Shown here: piece by piece, positions 10,642 to 36,479 of the stretch
Layout of the letters: every line of letters begins with the position of its first letter
How positions within the stretch are numbered: the first letter of the stretch is position 1
IMG/VR virus record: IMGVR_UViG_3300018083_000021
Strand: one strand, 5' to 3'
Source: a virus
DNA length: 36,479 bases
Position numbers and translations under genes: made by a program
Notes under the pieces: model-generated
Databases searched by the model: none
Told to the model about the DNA's origin: nothing
What the model saw: the letters and a program-made list of their open reading frames with translations, nothing else

Positions 10642-12234
10642 ATGACAGTGACATACAGCTTAGCCCCTGAGCCAATCTGGGTAATCATAAATAATCAAGG
10701 GACTGTTGCGGGCGGCGCAAAAATGTATACGCGCAGTTCTTTGGATAAAACTGTAGATAAGCCAGTATTTCAAGATGCAGGCGGCACTATTCCTTGGACA
10801 AATCCAATAATTTTTGATTTAAACGGTACGCAAGGACCATTCTATTGGAAATTTGATACAGCGGCTCCTGATGATCTCTACTATATCTTTGTAAATGATG
10901 CTGATGGCAATCTAATTTGGGATCAAGATGATTTCACAGGCGGAAGTGGAGGCGGAGGTGGTGGAACAGTAACAACCTATATCCCACTTACAAACTACAT
11001 TGCCAATAATCAATTTATCGACCACTGTGATGACACAACTACAACCTCTCTTACAGACCTAGTCATAGCCCCATCAAACCATAAGGGCTTTACCCCATCT
11101 TTGGTAAATCCCGTGGTTGGTGATAACGGCGTTGTAGGCTCTGATATAAGATTCTTAAAAAATAGCACAGCAAATACTGACTCAGTTAGCTTTGTAACAT
11201 TTTCTATGGCAACAGCGCCATTTACAGGAGATGTGACCCCAATTGAATATGTGCGTTATCAATGTACCACAAGCAATCCCGGGGAAACTTATAAATGCTT
11301 CCAATTTCCGATTACGCAAAAAGTTAAAAATCTTTCTAATCAGGCTATGACTTTTAAAATCTGGGCGGCAGTGACTGCAAGCACAGTTAATATACAGCCA
11401 TATTTCCGGCAGTATTTTGGTTCATCACCTACCGCGAGTACTGAGGTTCGTAATCCAATAGGTGGAGCGCTAGCATTAACTACTACGTGGACACAATATA
11501 ATGTGAATTTCACAATTGACAGTGTGGCCGCTAAAACTTTGGGAACACCAGGTGCACAAACAGATGACGACGCGCTTTATATACAATTAGAAATGCCCTT
11601 GAATACCGCTTGTGATGTTCTATTCACCAAGCCTAAATTGTATCTAGGTACAATTGACCCAAGTCTTGAGTTTGAAGACTACGACCAGATTAACTCTATA
11701 AACTCCACTCCGCGTACAGGCGATATAAAAACTAGCTTACTGTCATCAGTTCCCAGAGGCTGGGTAGCTATGAATGATGGCACTATTGGTAATGCCGGAA
11801 GTGGAGCGGATAGAGAGAATAAAGACACATTTCAATTATACAAAACTATTTGGGATGGAATATTAGATGCATGGGCACCTGTTTCAACTGGGCGTGGTGC
11901 CACAGCAGTTGCAGATTTCCTTGCCGGAAAAACACTTACATTGCCACGTTCTTTGGGTCGCGCATTGGCAGGAGCCGGAACAGGTTCTGGGCTTACTGCG
12001 CGTGTACTTGGTGAATATTTGGGTGCAGAAACCATATCAATAGCTGCAATGCCCGCGCATACACATCCCGGTAGTACCGTTGCAATCGAATCATCTTTGG
12101 GGGCTTCTGGATCATCAGTCTCAAGAATGATACCCGGAAGTACTACCGCTGTATCAGTAGCATCCCAAGGCGGTAGTGCCGCCAATGGCAATATGTCACC
12201 AACATCATTTTTCAATGTATTTATTAAACTCTAA
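10642..12234 (+). CDS. Tail fibre protein with a phage tail-collar domain
   Basis: The C-terminal motifs LPRSLGRALAGAG...GEYLGAETISIAAMPAHTHPG are typical of the tail-collar (Collar) domain. There is a poly-Gly hinge (GGSGGGGGG). A 200-bp AT-rich gap lies upstream. Confidence 0.75.
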   Translation: MTVTYSLAPEPIWVIINNQGTVAGGAKMYTRSSLDKTVDKPVFQDAGGTIPWTNPIIFDLNGTQGPFYWKFDTAAPDDLYYIFVNDADGNLIWDQDDFTGGSGGGGGGTVTTYIPLTNYIANNQFIDHCDDTTTTSLTDLVIAPSNHKGFTPSLVNPVVGDNGVVGSDIRFLKNSTANTDSVSFVTFSMATAPFTGDVTPIEYVRYQCTTSNPGETYKCFQFPITQKVKNLSNQAMTFKIWAAVTASTVNIQPYFRQYFGSSPTASTEVRNPIGGALALTTTWTQYNVNFTIDSVAAKTLGTPGAQTDDDALYIQLEMPLNTACDVLFTKPKLYLGTIDPSLEFEDYDQINSINSTPRTGDIKTSLLSSVPRGWVAMNDGTIGNAGSGADRENKDTFQLYKTIWDGILDAWAPVSTGRGATAVADFLAGKTLTLPRSLGRALAGAGTGSGLTARVLGEYLGAETISIAAMPAHTHPGSTVAIESSLGASGSSVSRMIPGSTTAVSVASQGGSAANGNMSPTSFFNVFIKL

Positions 12235-24499: not shown

Positions 24500-24780
24500 T
24501 AAACAACCATCCCTACACCCACCCCAATCAAAATCATCTCCCATGAAGTCATCTTTATATCGAAATGTGACAATATCACATAAAGGATTATCCAGACACC
24601 AGCTCCTCTCCACCACTTGCTCCATGGACATTCAAGGACAATTTCAAATAGCGCATGGATAAATTTCTTTTTAAATATAAAATGTCCCGGAATTCCAAAC
24701 TCTTCATTACATGCTATATGTAAGTCAGCTTCTTTTTTTGTTTTAAATCTCTCATCACAGATGCATGTGTATCTTTTCAT
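24499..24780 (-). CDS. Membrane protein (93 aa) with an N-terminal CxC...H motif and two C-terminal hydrophobic helices
   Basis: The N-terminus is MKRYTCICDERFKTKKEADLHIAC. The hydrophobic segments are GAGVWIILYVILSHF and MILIGVGVGMVV. Confidence 0.5.
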   Translation of the reverse strand: MKRYTCICDERFKTKKEADLHIACNEEFGIPGHFIFKKKFIHALFEIVLECPWSKWWRGAGVWIILYVILSHFDIKMTSWEMILIGVGVGMVV

Positions 24781-25720: not shown

Positions 25721-25789
25721 ATCACCCTGACGGAATCGAACCGCCATCTGTCGCTAACAGGCGACACTCTACCATTGAGCTAAGGGTGA
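25721..25789 (-). tRNA. tRNA-like gene with a non-canonical anticodon arm. The possible anticodon is GUU (Asn).
   Basis: The minus-strand sequence is TCACCCTTAGCTCAATGGTAGAGTGTCGCCTGTTAGCGACAGATGGCGGTTCGATTCCGTCAGGGTGA. The acceptor stem is TCACCCT/AGGGTGA. The D arm is GCTC-AATGGTA-GAGT. The T arm is GGCGG-TTCGATT-CCGTC. The anticodon arm folds only as a 6-bp stem with a 6-nt loop (CTGTTA), or a 5-bp stem with an 8-nt loop. The gene is 68 nt long with no encoded CCA. Confidence 0.6.
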
Positions 25790-30029: not shown

Positions 30030-30052
30030 AAGCCCTAGAAATAGGGCTTTTT
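30030..30052 (+). terminator. Rho-independent terminator
   Basis: AAGCCCT-AGAAAT-AGGGCTT is followed by TTT. It lies between the convergent genes ending at 29986 (+) and 30055 (-). Confidence 0.7.
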
Positions 30053-31445: not shown

Positions 31446-31481
31446 TATTCGATTATTCAATGCATTAAAGGATTAATGACT

Positions 31482-31937
31482 ATGGCAGGAAAGCCTAATC
31501 CACCAAAGGTCTATGCCACAGAACCTGTAGGCAGGCCATCTAAATTCACTCCAGAAATACGCAATGGTATCATTCATGCAGTTTCAAGACGCGTCCCTTA
31601 TTGTTTAGCCGCCGAGGCCAACGGTATATCAGAGCCAACGTTATATGCGTGGATTAACATCGGCAAGCAGCATTTAAAGGACGGAATTGAGTCAGATTAT
31701 ACAATGTTTATTAAGTCCTTAAAAGTTGCTGAAATGTCCCGCATGATGGAGCATACGGATAAAATAGCCGATCATGTCGATAAATGGCAAGCTGACGCAT
31801 GGCTTCTTGAGCGTAGATGGCATAAGGACTGGAGTGCAAACGCACAACTCAATGAACTCAATCAAAAACTTGATACCCTCTTAGACGGTGGAACTAATGA
31901 AAAACTCAGAAAAAAAGAAGATGATGAAGAAGCATGA
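31482..31937 (+). CDS. terS: Terminase small subunit (HTH type)
   Basis: GRPSKFTPEIRNGIIHAVSRRVPYCLAAEANGISEPTLYAWINIG matches the GRPtkyTPE...HTH...Tly.W signature of many small terminases. AGGA lies 9 nt upstream of ATG 31482. The track start is 31476. Confidence 0.65.
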   Translation: MAGKPNPPKVYATEPVGRPSKFTPEIRNGIIHAVSRRVPYCLAAEANGISEPTLYAWINIGKQHLKDGIESDYTMFIKSLKVAEMSRMMEHTDKIADHVDKWQADAWLLERRWHKDWSANAQLNELNQKLDTLLDGGTNEKLRKKEDDEEA

Positions 31938-32259: not shown

Positions 32260-32448
32260 ATGGGTGCTAAATACACATCAAACAAGCCAGACGGATACAT
32301 GCGTACACGCAATAATATCTATCTTGAGCGTGAATCTTTACAGCAAACAAGAACATTTGCAGAAGCCGGAGCAAGTCGTAACTTGCCAGCCCAGAGCAAA
32401 GAAAATTATGGCAAGGATGATATAAGCGGGAAAATATTTAACAAATAA
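32260..32448 (+). CDS. Hypothetical protein (62 aa)
   Basis: The ATG lies 1 nt after the previous stop, with GGGAG upstream. Confidence 0.5.
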   Translation: MGAKYTSNKPDGYMRTRNNIYLERESLQQTRTFAEAGASRNLPAQSKENYGKDDISGKIFNK

Positions 32449-32457
32449 GGATTAATT

Positions 32458-32601
32458 ATGCCATTAGTCAAGGGCGCTAAAGCTCGCACAAAGAAAGGCT
32501 TCTCAACTAACGTTAAGCGTGAGATGGAGGCGGGGAAAAAGCATTCTCAAGCTGTCGCTATTGCTTACTCAGAAGCTGGTGAGAAGAAGAAGAAAAAGTA
32601 A
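32458..32601 (+). CDS. Small basic protein (47 aa), missing from the track
   Basis: The product is MPLVKGAKARTKKGFSTNVKREMEAGKKHSQAVAIAYSEAGEKKKKK. AAGGA lies upstream. I recall the K.SqAvAIAySEAGk motif as a recurrent small phage/bacterial protein. Confidence 0.55.
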   Translation: MPLVKGAKARTKKGFSTNVKREMEAGKKHSQAVAIAYSEAGEKKKKK

Positions 32602-32651: not shown

Positions 32652-32837
32652 ATGGCTGTCATACAAAATACGTGGATAGAAAAGCAAAAGAAGAAGAAAG
32701 AACTAGAAACCGCGCCTGCATTTGAAGCAGCCCCCACAGACAACTGGCTACCCATCGATACTAAGAAGCCTGTCAAACGCCATACAAGTGCCTCACGTGG
32801 CACATACAAGCACTCCCTGAGAGGCATTCGAAAATGA
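32652..32837 (+). CDS. Hypothetical basic protein (61 aa)
   Basis: An ATGA overlap links it to the next gene. Confidence 0.5.
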   Translation: MAVIQNTWIEKQKKKKELETAPAFEAAPTDNWLPIDTKKPVKRHTSASRGTYKHSLRGIRK

Positions 32838-33019
32838 ATTGCAAATCTTGTGGCTATGGTAATTCTCGTGTAGTAGAGACTACGCAAAACGAACGTACAA
32901 ATCATGTGATGAGAAGACGCGAATGCATCAAGTGCGGTATGCGATATACAACTCAAGAGCATATTCATGATAGGCCTAACTTTAAAACTCCTCCCCCCAA
33001 GTCGGTGCTTGAGAAATGA
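32834..33019 (+). CDS. NrdR-type C4 zinc-ribbon protein lacking the ATP-cone (61 aa)
   Basis: MNCKSCGYGNSRVVETTQNERTNHVMRRRECIKCGMRYTTQE aligns without gaps to the NrdR N-terminus as I recall it, [42 protein letters not shown]. ATGA overlaps occur at both ends. Confidence 0.7.
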   Translation: MNCKSCGYGNSRVVETTQNERTNHVMRRRECIKCGMRYTTQEHIHDRPNFKTPPPKSVLEK

Positions 33020-34581
33020 ACCTAACCGCATCAGCCATAGCCCGCAGAATTGCAGAAATAGAAGAATCACGCCGCAAAGGCACAGAGCAACAAATAACCA
33101 TTAACGATACAGGGATGATAATACATGCTTCTGACCAGGATAAAATCTATGTTCCGACTGCGACCGGTAGTATTGCTCATGACAATAATAGCTTTGTGCG
33201 TGTCATTATGGGCCCTTACGGAAGTGGAAAGTCAACGTGGGCAGCTTGCGAAATTGTTAAGCGAGCCTGTGAGATGCCAATATGGCACAGTGGACGACGA
33301 CGAAGCCGATGGGGAATTGTACGAAATACCAGTGGTGAACTATCAACAACTACCCTTGCCACATGGCTCGCATGGTTCGAAGAGCTAGGCGATATACGTA
33401 AGCGTCAGAAGCCCATCATGACCTATGAGCATACGTTTAATGATGGTCATGGCATAGTGGAGCTGGAGCTGTTATTCATCGCCCTTGATAGGCCAGAAGA
33501 TGTTAGAAAGATTAAGTCTTTAGAGTTGACTGGATGCTATATCAATGAGCTATCAGAGGTTCCAAAGGCGGCCTTGGCTCATATGAAGGGTCGAGTTAAT
33601 CGCTATCCTTCTAAAGCATTTTGTCACGAGCCTTACTGGTCGGGCATTATTGCGGACACCAATCCGCCCGAGGATGACCACTGGATATTCAAAGACTTTG
33701 AGGAGCAAGCATTTGACCATCACATTCTATTCAAACAACCTCCGGGATTAATCAAGAATGATGATAACAAGTGGGTACGAAATCCATTGGCTGATAATGC
33801 TAGTCATTTGCCTGATAATTACTATGAGATGCTTGCCGAAGGACAGTCTCAAGAGTTTATTAAGGTATTTTGTCTTGGTGAGTATGGGTCTGTTGGCTTT
33901 GGTAAACGTGTGTATCCTGAGTTTAATCCTGACTTTCATGCGGTGGACTCACTGGCTGCAATACAAGGCGAGCAGCTTATTTTGGGCTGGGATTTTGGGC
34001 TTACTCCTGCTTGCACTGTGTTGCAATTATCTCCCCGTGGGCAGCTTTTGATTCTCAAAGAATATGTGGGTGATGGTATGGGAATTAGAACCTTTGCAGA
34101 ATCTATTGTAATGCCTGGGTTGCTTGTAGACTTTCCTTATTGCAAAGTTGGTGACTTGTCCATAGCCGACCCCGCAGGGGCTGCACGTGATCAGATAATT
34201 GAAGAAATGAGCTGTATTGGTGAGCTTAACTCATTGGGCATCCCAACACGTGCCGCTCGCACAAATGACATTGACCCACGCATAGGTTCTGTTAAATACT
34301 TCTTAAACAAGATGGTTGACGGTAAGCCCGGTTTAGTTCTTGATAGGCGCAAATGCCCGACACTGTTTAAAGGTTTTGTGAAAGACTATATCTTTGCGCG
34401 GGTGGCTGTATCAGGTGAAGAGCGCTATAAGGACAAGCCAAATAAGAACATGGCCTCACATCCCATGGATGCGCTTGGTTATGCATGTTTAGAGATAGCT
34501 AGTGATAGAATAGCGGTAGATAAAATGGGTGAGAATAGGCATGAGAATATGTTTAATCCGGGATTCAGGTGGCAGGGATGA
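33016..34581 (+). CDS. terL: Terminase large subunit
   Basis: The Walker A motif is GPYGSGKST and the Walker B-like motif is LTGCYINELSE. The C-terminal nuclease-type acidic motifs are GWDFG and SIADPAGAARD. The protein is 521 aa. Confidence 0.9.
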   Translation: MNLTASAIARRIAEIEESRRKGTEQQITINDTGMIIHASDQDKIYVPTATGSIAHDNNSFVRVIMGPYGSGKSTWAACEIVKRACEMPIWHSGRRRSRWGIVRNTSGELSTTTLATWLAWFEELGDIRKRQKPIMTYEHTFNDGHGIVELELLFIALDRPEDVRKIKSLELTGCYINELSEVPKAALAHMKGRVNRYPSKAFCHEPYWSGIIADTNPPEDDHWIFKDFEEQAFDHHILFKQPPGLIKNDDNKWVRNPLADNASHLPDNYYEMLAEGQSQEFIKVFCLGEYGSVGFGKRVYPEFNPDFHAVDSLAAIQGEQLILGWDFGLTPACTVLQLSPRGQLLILKEYVGDGMGIRTFAESIVMPGLLVDFPYCKVGDLSIADPAGAARDQIIEEMSCIGELNSLGIPTRAARTNDIDPRIGSVKYFLNKMVDGKPGLVLDRRKCPTLFKGFVKDYIFARVAVSGEERYKDKPNKNMASHPMDALGYACLEIASDRIAVDKMGENRHENMFNPGFRWQG

Positions 34582-34820
34582 GATTTGATATTAGTGTGAG
34601 CACAAGCTTTTTAGGTTACTCTAAAGTTTTGAAAGTCGTATTATTTAGTAAATCCGATGAAGAACATGCCAAGGATGAATATAATTCTGGCATTTACGAT
34701 TGTTGCGCAACTGTCCCTGATGACAAGAGTGCTTTTTTAAGCATGATAGAAGATTGCGTGAATTTATGTCTTAGAACTTATGAAGAATCATTGAGTGAAA
34801 AAAATGAAACTCAAATGTAA
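34578..34820 (+). CDS. Hypothetical protein (80 aa)
   Basis: ATG 34578 forms an ATGA overlap with the terL stop. The track start 34569 is a GTG. Confidence 0.5.
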   Translation: MRFDISVSTSFLGYSKVLKVVLFSKSDEEHAKDEYNSGIYDCCATVPDDKSAFLSMIEDCVNLCLRTYEESLSEKNETQM

Positions 34821-34971
34821 GTATTGCGACAAATATTACCAGACAGTCCATCAATGCGATAAATGTCCTCAATGCGCCTGTGAGTTTCAACGCATACTTA
34901 ATAAAACAATGAACAAAGTAACAGAATGTGTAATAGCCATGGGCGGCAAAGACGTAACGGAGGATAAGTAA
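34804..34971 (+). CDS. Small zinc-ribbon protein (55 aa), missing from the track
   Basis: The product starts MKLKCKYCDKYYQTVHQCDKCPQCACEF. Its TAA overlaps the next ATG (TAATG). Confidence 0.5.
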   Translation: MKLKCKYCDKYYQTVHQCDKCPQCACEFQRILNKTMNKVTECVIAMGGKDVTEDK

Positions 34972-35453: not shown

Positions 35454-35711
35454 ATGTTATTTCAAGATGCATTAGCAAAATTGCATGAAGGCGCTCCAAT
35501 GAGACGCGCTTGCTGGACAGCAGAAGATGGTTATTTGACATTAATGCCTAGCATGGAATATGTATGGAAGATTGTATTACTTCCTAATCCAAACGCGGGT
35601 AATTTTATATTCAAAGTCGAAGACTTTATGGCCGATGACTGGGAAGAGTTTGTAGAAGCTAAAGAGCTTATCGAAGGCTTTAACGATGCTAAAGATGCAG
35701 AACATGAGTAA
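35454..35711 (+). CDS. DUF2829 (Tad2-like) protein, copy 3 (85 aa)
   Basis: It begins MLFQDALAKLHEGAPMRRACWTAEDGYL and contains ...FMADDWEEF. AGGAGA lies upstream. Confidence 0.6.
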   Translation: MLFQDALAKLHEGAPMRRACWTAEDGYLTLMPSMEYVWKIVLLPNPNAGNFIFKVEDFMADDWEEFVEAKELIEGFNDAKDAEHE

Positions 35712-35801: not shown

Positions 35802-36479
35802 ATGGAAATCGTTGCCGACGAATTACCTATTGATGAAATTGATGAGATTAACGCGAAGCTCCAAGAACGCATGGAAGAAGCTGGCATTGATGAGGCGGAG
35901 GTCTTAAAAAAGTGCCGAGAAGATTTAGTCCTTTGGGATGGGTATTTCGGTGAAAACACGGTTCGCGGCAAGGATGACATGAACTTTGTATTGCGTGACC
36001 AATGGTCAACCGTGGAAAGGTCAGAGTTCACACGTCTATTTAAACCCGCCATGTCATTTAACAAACTCTATGACACCACAAAGAAGGTTTTAGGCGAACA
36101 GCGTAAAAATAAGCCCGATTTAATAGTGCGTTCTCTCACAGGCAAAGCATCTGAACAACAAATAGATTTAAGAGCCGATTTAGTACGCACAATATCTTAT
36201 CAATCACAAAACGACCTTGTATACCAGACGGCATTTAGGCAAGCTCTAATGATGGGCTATGGGGCTTTTGAGATAGTTTTAGAATACGAGAATCCCACAT
36301 CATTCAATCAAGTTATCAAATATGAGCTTATTCCTGATGTAACGCGCACATCGTTCGATCCAATGGCCATGAAGCCACACAAGGGTGACGGGAACTTTTG
36401 CGCACGCCAATATGTTTATACAAAAGAAGAATTCTACGCTACATATCCTAATGTCATGAATCCTGTTAGCTATTCCGAC
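35802..36479 (+). CDS. Portal protein, N-terminal part. It is 3'-open at the window end and continues at base 124 through the overlap.
   Basis: ATG 35802 has AAGGA 11 nt upstream. The frame has no stop to the window end and runs into GAT CCA ATG GCC ATG AAG, which is bases 1-18. The ORF track misses it because it has no stop codon. Confidence 0.85.
   Translation, partial: MEIVADELPIDEIDEINAKLQERMEEAGIDEAEVLKKCREDLVLWDGYFGENTVRGKDDMNFVLRDQWSTVERSEFTRLFKPAMSFNKLYDTTKKVLGEQRKNKPDLIVRSLTGKASEQQIDLRADLVRTISYQSQNDLVYQTAFRQALMMGYGAFEIVLEYENPTSFNQVIKYELIPDVTRTSFDPMAMKPHKGDGNFCARQYVYTKEEFYATYPNVMNPVSYSD
36357..36479. repeat. Terminal direct repeat (copy 2), identical to 1-123
   Basis: Base-for-base identity with the first 123 nt. 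Confidence 0.95.

Follow-up and report, generated by a model that had tools for sequence, protein, structure and literature searches.

A stand-alone NrdR-type zinc ribbon in the terminase module of a P22-like phage

Why does a phage carry the zinc ribbon of NrdR without the rest of the protein, and why does it carry it directly in front of its large terminase gene? NrdR is the bacterial repressor of ribonucleotide reductase operons and consists of a zinc ribbon and an ATP-cone. The question is raised by the viral record IMGVR_UViG_3300018083_000021 from IMG/VR, a DNA stretch of 36,479 nucleotides (the window). In it, a short open reading frame (ORF) between the two terminase genes, terS (small subunit) and terL (large subunit), was described by a first-pass annotation, made from the letters alone, as an NrdR ribbon that lacks the ATP-cone. 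Two roles were suggested: competition with the host repressor at NrdR boxes, or help in DNA packaging. We find that the ribbon is real, and that service to packaging is probably likelier than a hijack of the host's control over deoxynucleoside triphosphates (dNTPs). The gene and its parts are as follows.

32834..33019, plus strand: stand-alone NrdR-type zinc-ribbon gene, 61 amino acids (aa), product MNCKSCGYGNSRVVETTQNERTNHVMRRRECIKCGMRYTTQEHIHDRPNFKTPPPKSVLEK
32834..32962, plus strand: zinc-ribbon domain proper, residues 1-43, predicted zinc ligands C3, C6, C31 and C34
Residues 12, 27-29 and 37 of the ribbon domain: arginine cluster (R12, R27-R29, R37), backbone-contact role taken from NrdR
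Residues R27, R29, E42 and strand 37-43: putative ribbon-ribbon dimer interface, role taken from NrdR
Residues 44-61: tail of the ribbon protein, conserved as [FY]KTPPP[KR]x[VI]LEK

Identity and residues of the ribbon

The 61-aa protein is a true NrdR-type C4 zinc ribbon without an ATP-cone. Residues 1-42 match the Pfam domain Zn_ribbon_NrdR (PF22811) over the entire profile (1-42/42, E value 2.3e-12, 47.1 bits). The gathering cutoff is 27.2 bits, and a protein above it belongs to the domain family. All other zinc-ribbon families in Pfam give E values of at least 0.011. Because the match covers the full domain at E 2.3e-12, the resemblance far exceeds a generic CxxC pair. The model of full-length NrdR (TIGR00244, NCBIfam) aligns only at positions 1-45 of 147, with 33.2 bits against a cutoff of 124.65, and the ORF ends at residue 61. 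Hence, the ATP-cone is absent, as had been claimed.

The first-pass annotation also proposed to check the ribbon with a profile search and a structure prediction, and both bear it out. A profile of the phage family retrieves solved NrdR chains (7P37 with E 6e-9, E. coli NrdR with about 1e-5) in a gapless alignment from 1-43 to 1-43 (HMMER). In this alignment C3, C6, R27-R29, C31, C34 and R37-Y38-T39-T40-Q41-E42 are in exact register with the E. coli and S. coelicolor NrdR. The AlphaFold2 model has a mean pLDDT (predicted local distance difference test) of 79, with strands at residues 11-19, 24-31 and 37-43. The tail (residues 44-61) has low confidence and is probably disordered. In a Foldseek search of the PDB, the best 13 matches are all NrdR ribbons or models that contain NrdR (root-mean-square deviation 1.4-2.0 Å over 43-46 residues). 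On solved NrdR ribbons the model superposes to 1.4-1.7 Å. Behind NrdR follow TFIIS-type ribbons of RNA polymerase I, with E > 0.1. The domain is already known. What is new is that it stands alone, is apparently re-specified and is linked to the terminase.

The known NrdR structures allow us to ask which functions the phage ribbon could have kept. In S. coelicolor and E. coli NrdR, zinc is held by C3, C6, C31 and C34, the DNA backbone is contacted by R12, R26-29 and R37, and the bases of the NrdR box are read by D15 and R17 (PMC9110341, PMC12176259). Dimerisation through the ribbons is established: two ribbons join through R27, R29, E42 and strand 39-45, and the pair kinks DNA (PMC9110341, PMC12176259). 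The ATP-cone alone gives dimers only, and the tetramer on two boxes requires both types of contact (PMC9110341, PMC12176259). In S. coelicolor NrdR, the mutation R17A abolishes box binding, while D15A tightens binding at the loss of specificity, which makes D15 a specificity filter (PMC9110341).

We compared 71 unique ribbons of the phage family with 66 fetched cellular NrdRs. Invariant in both sets are the four cysteines, R27-29, R37 and E42. At position 40 the cellular proteins have T (59) or S (7) and the phage ribbons T in 71 of 71. Position 17 is R in all 66 cellular sequences; in the phage family it is T in 30, K in 20, R in 8 and something else in the others. Position 15 is D in 59 and E in 7 cellular proteins, compared to E in 34, D in 22 and other residues in 15 phage ribbons. 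Position 26 is R in 65 cellular proteins and K in one, compared to Y (37), I (16), M (5), R (3) and others in the phage family. The window protein itself has E15, T17 and M26. The match to NrdR had been called position for position. This is correct for C3, C6, the RRR run, C31, C34 and R-[FY]-T-T-x-E, but not for D15, R17 and R26.

Judged by these residues, the phage protein retains the fold, the predicted zinc ligands, the dimer interface and a surface for binding nucleic acid in general. It has lost D15 and R17, on which the box specificity of NrdR depends, together with R26. Of what characterises an NrdR, the dimer-interface residues are present; the ATP-cone, D15/R17, the full RRRR run (R26-R29) and box targets in the window are not. 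Such a ribbon would sense no nucleotides, and it is unlikely to occupy host NrdR boxes. The clade of the window is defined by C-x-x-C-x-Y-P, T16, the loss of R26 and the junction with terL.

The ribbon among the terminase genes

We examined 85 loci, consisting of the window and 84 related loci from IMG/VR and other assemblies. Most of the related loci lie on contigs of 33-36 kb that share the P22-like gene arrangement of the window. The ribbon stands alone in 85 of 85 (52-67 aa). In the protein database, 21 homologue clusters (61-67 aa) have PF22811 as their sole domain. The proportion of synonymous differences (pS) is 0.82, a level at which these sites are saturated, and that of nonsynonymous differences (pN) is 0.22; pN/pS is about 0.27 in the ribbon domain, and in the tail it is 0.29. 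The ribbon gene is real, under purifying selection and core to this phage family.

The stop codon of the ribbon overlaps the next start codon in every locus, as ATGA in 84 and as GTGA in one. In 83 unique ribbon loci the next ORF belongs to the same TerL family. In the window, ATGA overlaps lie on both sides of the ribbon, at 32834-32837 (the stop of the upstream ORF) and at 33016-33019 (the start of terL). Overlaps of 4 nt occur at three of the 24 same-strand junctions in the window, and two of these three flank the ribbon. The ties to the upstream ORF and to terL that had been read from the window are therefore both in the sequence, and the one to terL is a property of the family. The genes around the ribbon are the following.

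31476..31937, plus strand: TerS-like helix-turn-helix (HTH) protein, small terminase candidate; phrog_4102 'terminase small subunit', E 2.4e-16; HTH at residues 20-61
32260..32448, plus strand: conserved 62-aa ORF in the terS-terL interval; found by tblastn in 67/85 loci; no Pfam or PHROG match
32458..32601, plus strand: 47-aa lysine-rich ORF; phrog_2423, E 6e-14; in 38/85 loci
32652..32837, plus strand: small basic ORF, 61 aa; found by tblastn in 70/85 loci; no Pfam or PHROG match
33016..34581, plus strand: large terminase subunit, 521 aa; phrog_2, E 3.6e-27; PF04466; TIGR01547

The true start of terS is probably the ATG at 31482 (MAGKPNPP...), which matches the starts in relatives. Of the small ORFs between terS and terL, the ribbon alone is present in each of the 85 loci, compared to 3, 38, 67 and 70 loci for the others. 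The 61-aa ORF directly upstream is conserved as well (MAVIQNKWVEK...RTLRGVRK, with TLRG[VI]RK at its C-terminus); in 81 loci it adjoins the start of the ribbon gene or overlaps with it.

To look beyond the family we used a degenerate DNA pattern for RRREC-x2-C-x2-R-[FY]-x-T-x-E, which matches at least 120 viral stretches. The matches listed and the earlier loci together contain at least 169 non-redundant ribbon ORFs, of which at least 163 have 110 aa or fewer. These were then clustered. Among the matches listed, 83 ribbons precede the TerL family of the window, including ribbons with ...NDDRF... tails and ribbons that are barely 40% identical. Eight loci (L136, L139, L163, L173, L181, L190, L085 and L135) combine dissimilar tails with the same TerL family (>660 bits). 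Since ribbons with different tails still precede the same TerL family, the terminase link outlasts divergence.

Two further clades among the matches listed, one of 96-104 aa (18 members) and one of 106 aa (2 members), lie above the PF22811 cutoff and directly precede terS (phrog_1482, E 1e-18 to 1e-21), with a 2-nt gap or an overlap. One of these terS-linked clades could be traced on to terL: in the high-GC L119 lineage a PDDEXK-like ORF is followed by the ribbon, TerS and then a different TerL (phrog_2, 5e-45). The remaining small clusters precede HNH endonucleases, an exonuclease, VRR-NUC-like, PolA-like or ThyX-like ORFs, or unknowns. A link to packaging is thus supported by the coupling of ribbon and terL in 84 of 85 loci and by the ribbons in front of terS in two other clades.

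The same comparison separates ribbons by what they have kept of NrdR. Among the matches listed, which are not phylogenetically independent, the signature [DE][ST]R with R or K at position 26 is found in 4 of the 103 ribbons linked to a terminase and in 19 of the other 60. By sequence there are two classes of phage ribbon: one keeps the signature and lives in other contexts, among them genes of replication, nucleases and nucleotide metabolism, the other loses it and lives with the terminase. The pattern is clear in that the ribbons travelling with the terminase look like those that have given up reading NrdR boxes. An automatic label, 'transcriptional regulator NrdR', is attached to both classes and is misleading for the window gene.

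Short phage ribbons that keep the signature (D/E-S-R and RRRR) away from the terminase are found at L120, L144, L151, L189, L102, L129 and L086. At L120 the ribbon lies directly before a ThyX-like ORF, and L086 has a weak Ogr_Delta and TFIIS-ribbon signal in Pfam. This class would provide better candidates than the window gene for proteins that bind NrdR boxes, act as decoys or tamper with host nrd genes. Among cultured phages, Blautia phage Montmirail carries a 52-aa copy of the ribbon annotated as 'hypothetical'. In Synechococcus phage S-CRES1 an NrdR-type ribbon (24616-24735, our L281) lies in an unannotated gap of 1.2 kb, with gp40 on one side and gp41 on the other. This places it about 4 kb downstream of the gene with which the phage encodes a ribonucleoside-triphosphate reductase. 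Taken as a whole, ribbons of the PF22811 type are widespread (5383 representative clusters at E<=1e-3, full-length NrdR included), and lengths of 47-100 aa are common among the top matches. Longer PF22811 proteins were considered as domain fusions, but they are NrdRs in duplicated or chimeric form, or odd insertions.

With about 36,356 bp, the phage genome in the window is complete and circularly permuted. Positions 1-123 are identical to 36357-36479 and represent an assembly overlap. The portal gene crosses the ends (start near 35802, end at 1629) and encodes about 727 aa without the duplicate. The genome encodes P22-type portal, scaffold, coat and tail proteins, a replication initiator and an endolysin, and, on the minus strand, a single-stranded DNA-binding protein (SSB) and a Sak4-like annealing protein. 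Among the scanned ORFs of the window no ribonucleotide reductase or other nrd gene was seen. A terminator-like hairpin at 30030-30049 ends the replication block. Behind it follow, on one strand, the endolysin, a possible holin, TerS, small ORFs, the ribbon, TerL and the structural genes. Because of this position, after the hairpin and within a lysis-terminase-structural operon, we consider the ribbon a late gene of the packaging module.

Three other features of the window deserve mention. At 34795-34971 (plus strand), after terL and overlapping the end of the ORF at 34569-34820, lies a cysteine-rich ORF of 58 aa (KCKYCDKYYQTVHQCDKCPQCAC) without a Pfam match, which may be another small zinc-binding protein. 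Between terL and the portal gene, an 85-aa ORF at 35454-35711 (plus strand) carries a domain like that of Thoeris anti-defence 2 (Tad2-like, PF11195), with E 4.3e-6 and 27.6 bits where the cutoff is 25, and the gene is weakly flagged in the relatives L001-L003 too. On the minus strand, ARAGORN reports a tRNA-like gene at 25721-25789 ('tRNA-???', with a 2-nt anticodon gt) that adjoins the SSB gene.

The lineage of the window is a very abundant family of environmental podoviruses, with more than 2200 TerL homologues (2229 at E<=1e-10). No fusion of TerL and ribbon was seen among the 120 listed TerL homologues, all of which are at least 77% identical. Some TerLs of the family are about 330 aa longer, namely P0283 (854 aa) and the 852-aa ORF after the ribbon of L074. 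P0283 contains a LAGLIDADG domain (PF14528), which suggests the insertion of an intein or homing endonuclease in the terminase. Among deposited phages, megablast found no close relative of the window, and tblastn gave weak matches (38-45% identity), most of them without annotation. When 185,579 species genomes were scanned, ordinary NrdRs came up, and the phage-type ribbon only on two small contigs of metagenome-assembled genomes, L200 (labelled Thaumarchaeota) and L201 (Gammaproteobacteria). Both are probably binned phage.

Possible targets and roles

The most obvious candidate target of an NrdR-type ribbon is the NrdR box. A scan of the phage for NrdR-box palindromes had been suggested together with the idea of competition, and its outcome speaks against that idea. 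With ACACWATATATWGTGT and up to 3 mismatches, the window contains one box-like 16-mer (ACACAATATAATGTGA, 11491-11506, 2 mismatches), compared to 1.0 expected by chance. It lies inside the tail gene 10642-12234. A second element, CAC-N8-GTG, is found about 20 bp downstream (11511-11524), but the window holds no partner at a spacing that NrdR accepts (14-17 or 24-27 bp). Given the chance-level count and the wrong spacing, we reject the view that the phage carries NrdR boxes. The looser motif CAC-N8-GTG occurs at 9 sites, compared to 4.8 expected, all of them scattered in coding sequence of the window.

Local inverted repeats near the ribbon and terminase genes include nothing convincing as an operator or target. 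Across the family, two palindromes are enriched. The first, GACCA-N-TGGTC, lies at 35997-36007 within GCGTGACCAATGGTCAGC, in the 5' portion of the portal gene, and its nucleotide sequence is conserved across the family. In 41 related loci it follows the ribbon at a distance of about 2.7-4.7 kb, on the downstream side. It may reflect coding constraint or a site such as pac. The second lies at the start of terS.

31463..31478, plus strand: hairpin/inverted repeat CATTAA-AGGA-TTAATG, with the terS Shine-Dalgarno sequence (AGGA) in the tetraloop

This hairpin has a 6-bp stem, lies 2-4 nt 5' of the terS ATG and is found upstream of terS in L001-L084, in most relatives as CACTAA-AGGA-TTAGTG. In 18 variants, chosen by hand to show variation, 97% of the cells are paired and 4 of the 6 pairs have changed on both sides; some of the changes are of the G.U type, and none of 500 shuffles scores as high. 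The hairpin is also present in the predicted minimum-free-energy fold of the RNA. It behaves as RNA, and it looks like a candidate operator or enhancer for the translation of terS.

To explain the association with the terminase, we propose that the gene encodes a dimeric partner of the terminase, which binds nucleic acid or bends DNA and acts at the initiation of packaging. We give this reading a probability of about 40%. An NrdR ribbon would have been cut off from its ATP-cone and re-purposed as a fixed member of the terminase gene module. The ribbon would form homodimers through strand 3, as NrdR ribbons do, and the dimer would bind and sharply bend nucleic acid with a specificity unlike that of NrdR, or looser. 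Translational coupling would ensure that the ribbon is made in step with TerL. It would then act with TerS and TerL at the start of packaging. It could, for instance, recognise or kink the DNA of the pac site or its surroundings, in much the way that IHF aids the lambda terminase. The conserved tail may dock the ribbon to a partner. In a bolder form, which we hold to be doubtful, at least three phage lineages have recruited the DNA-kinking head of NrdR as a third dedicated terminase component, whose task would be to recognise the packaging-initiation site or the terS leader or to bend it sharply.

Several observations weigh against a partner of the terminase. Its whole support is gene context and residue pattern, which is association and not a demonstration of DNA binding, of dimerisation or of an interaction with TerL or TerS. 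The 85 loci do not count as independent cases, since their adjacency is mostly inherited synteny, so that the independent support amounts to three lineages. The phage already has a separate TerS with its own HTH, and an extra DNA-binding factor is not obviously needed. Near the terminase genes we found no conserved DNA palindrome that could serve as the target; the sole conserved inverted repeat, at the terS start, is RNA-like. Strict adjacency is not obligatory either, because in four relatives (L041, L047, L050 and L058) an ORF of 58-87 aa is inserted between the ribbon and terL. The last codons of the ribbon contain Shine-Dalgarno-like AAGG/GGTG, and translation of terL may not need the coupling. 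Finally, the domain is not specific to packaging, as many other ribbons of phages are encoded in modules for replication or nucleases.

The hairpin on terS leads to an alternative, in which the ribbon dimer binds a phage operator and regulates the late or terminase operon, or terS. The ribbon could be an Ogr-like transcription factor, or a translational repressor that balances TerS against TerL by binding the hairpin on the terS Shine-Dalgarno sequence. NrdR ribbons are, after all, the DNA-binding heads of a transcription factor, small zinc-ribbon regulators such as Ogr/Delta exist in phages, L086 has its weak Pfam signal, and in this family a conserved, covarying hairpin sits exactly on the ribosome-binding site of terS. 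Yet the gene is part of the operon that it would control, with translational coupling to both of its neighbours. The terS-linked clades, with their 2-nt gap or overlap, leave no room for a promoter, unlike late activators of the RinA/Ltr type. The ribbon has no detectable homology to Ogr/Delta, our search found no repeated operator-like palindrome, and RNA binding is undocumented for the ribbon fold. We therefore regard such a regulator as unlikely. A small zinc protein directed at the host, be it an accessory gene ('moron'), an anti-defence protein or something similar, with no role in packaging or nrd control, is the least probable of the readings considered here. The intervals between terS and terL and between terL and the portal gene do contain several small ORFs and a Tad2-like domain (PF11195), and the ribbon weakly resembles the restriction-alleviation protein Lar (TIGR03655, E 0.037). 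However, that match has 14.3 bits, far under the cutoff of 39.6, and we reject the identification as Lar. Accessory genes are usually patchy, whereas the ribbon is found in 85 of 85 loci with a fixed terL junction, and its recurrence beside terS in other lineages would be unexpected for a moron related to defence.

There remains the idea that the ribbon antagonises the host NrdR, frees nrd transcription and raises dNTP levels. It could do so (a) as a decoy at the boxes or (b) as a dominant-negative cap. In the latter version the phage ribbon would pair with the ribbon of host NrdR through R27, R29, E42 and strand 3, and break the tetramer, in which ribbon-ribbon and cone-cone contacts alternate. 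The protein is a true NrdR ribbon, the interface residues that build the tetramer are invariant in the phage family, and a phage in which no ribonucleotide reductase is seen would rely on dNTP synthesis by the host. Other phage ribbons with DSR and RRRR lie near nucleotide or replication genes (L120), and for that class the decoy role may fit. For the window gene, a decoy is disfavoured by the loss of R17 and D15, needed for binding and specificity, and of R26, none of which is conserved in the phage family, and by the missing cone, since a dimer without it cannot bridge two boxes. Both versions are at odds with the timing: the gene is late and coupled to the terminase, but the demand for dNTPs begins at replication. 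Across three lineages the gene keeps its place beside terL or terS and not beside genes of nucleotide metabolism, and the interface residues are explained equally well by homodimerisation. Antagonism of NrdR thus appears improbable, although somewhat less so than a protein without any part in packaging or nrd control. Of the two roles suggested at the outset, help in packaging is the better supported: gene context speaks for it, through the 84/85 coupling and the terS-linked clades, but as an association only.

If the terminase-partner reading is true, phage terminases would have an unrecognised and widely distributed accessory component. A single DNA-binding module would then have two unrelated roles, one in a nucleotide-sensing repressor of cells and one in the packaging of phage genomes. 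The ribbon would also offer a way to study how the pac site is recognised in these uncultured P22-like podoviruses, which form a large family.

Comparison with known systems

The closest known relative is NrdR itself (TIGR00244; 7P37, 9FVR, 9FXK, 9GEX). Its N-terminal 43 residues are homologous to the window ribbon and form the same three-stranded fold. In contrast to NrdR, the window ribbon has no ATP-cone, and hence neither nucleotide sensing nor a tetramer is expected. It has a conserved tail of its own, it is phage-borne, late and coupled to the terminase, and the window contains no paired boxes. Other short PF22811 ribbons from phages and metagenomes (phrog_10675 and phrog_36879, function unknown) share the domain and the small size. 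Many of them differ in that they keep DSR and RRRR and lie in replication or nuclease modules; some precede terS and are in this respect like the terminase-linked ribbon described here. In the searchable literature, phage 'NrdR' appears only as automatic annotation (cyanopodovirus S-SRP02 and viruses of the STIV group), and we found nothing there on an NrdR ribbon without the cone or on a terminase-linked zinc ribbon.

The best-studied stand-alone zinc-ribbon DNA-binding proteins of phages are Ogr and Delta of P2 and P4 (PF04606), which activate late genes. They resemble the window ribbon in size (about 60-70 aa), in their C4 zinc ribbon, in being encoded by phages and, superficially, in an x-T-F-x-T-x-E strand. 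We reject kinship with them: PF04606 gives no match at E<=1, and hhalign against P2 Ogr gives a probability of 0.5% (E 0.12, 14 columns). Ogr is also a separately transcribed activator, whereas the window ribbon is embedded in the terminase genes. Nor is the ribbon itself a TerS, as it matches no TerS family in PHROG or Pfam and the TerS-like HTH protein at 31476..31937 is a separate one.

Small proteins that assist a terminase are known from other phages. IHF acts at lambda cos, and HNH proteins are encoded beside the terminase in HK97-like phages. Two of the phage ribbons neighbour HNH genes (L090 and L093), and L097 looks similar. Like IHF and the HNH proteins, the window ribbon would be a small nucleic-acid-binding protein, and the HNH genes likewise adjoin the terminase genes. 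The ribbon differs from these accessories in its fold and has no nuclease motif, and the role we assign to it is read from gene context.

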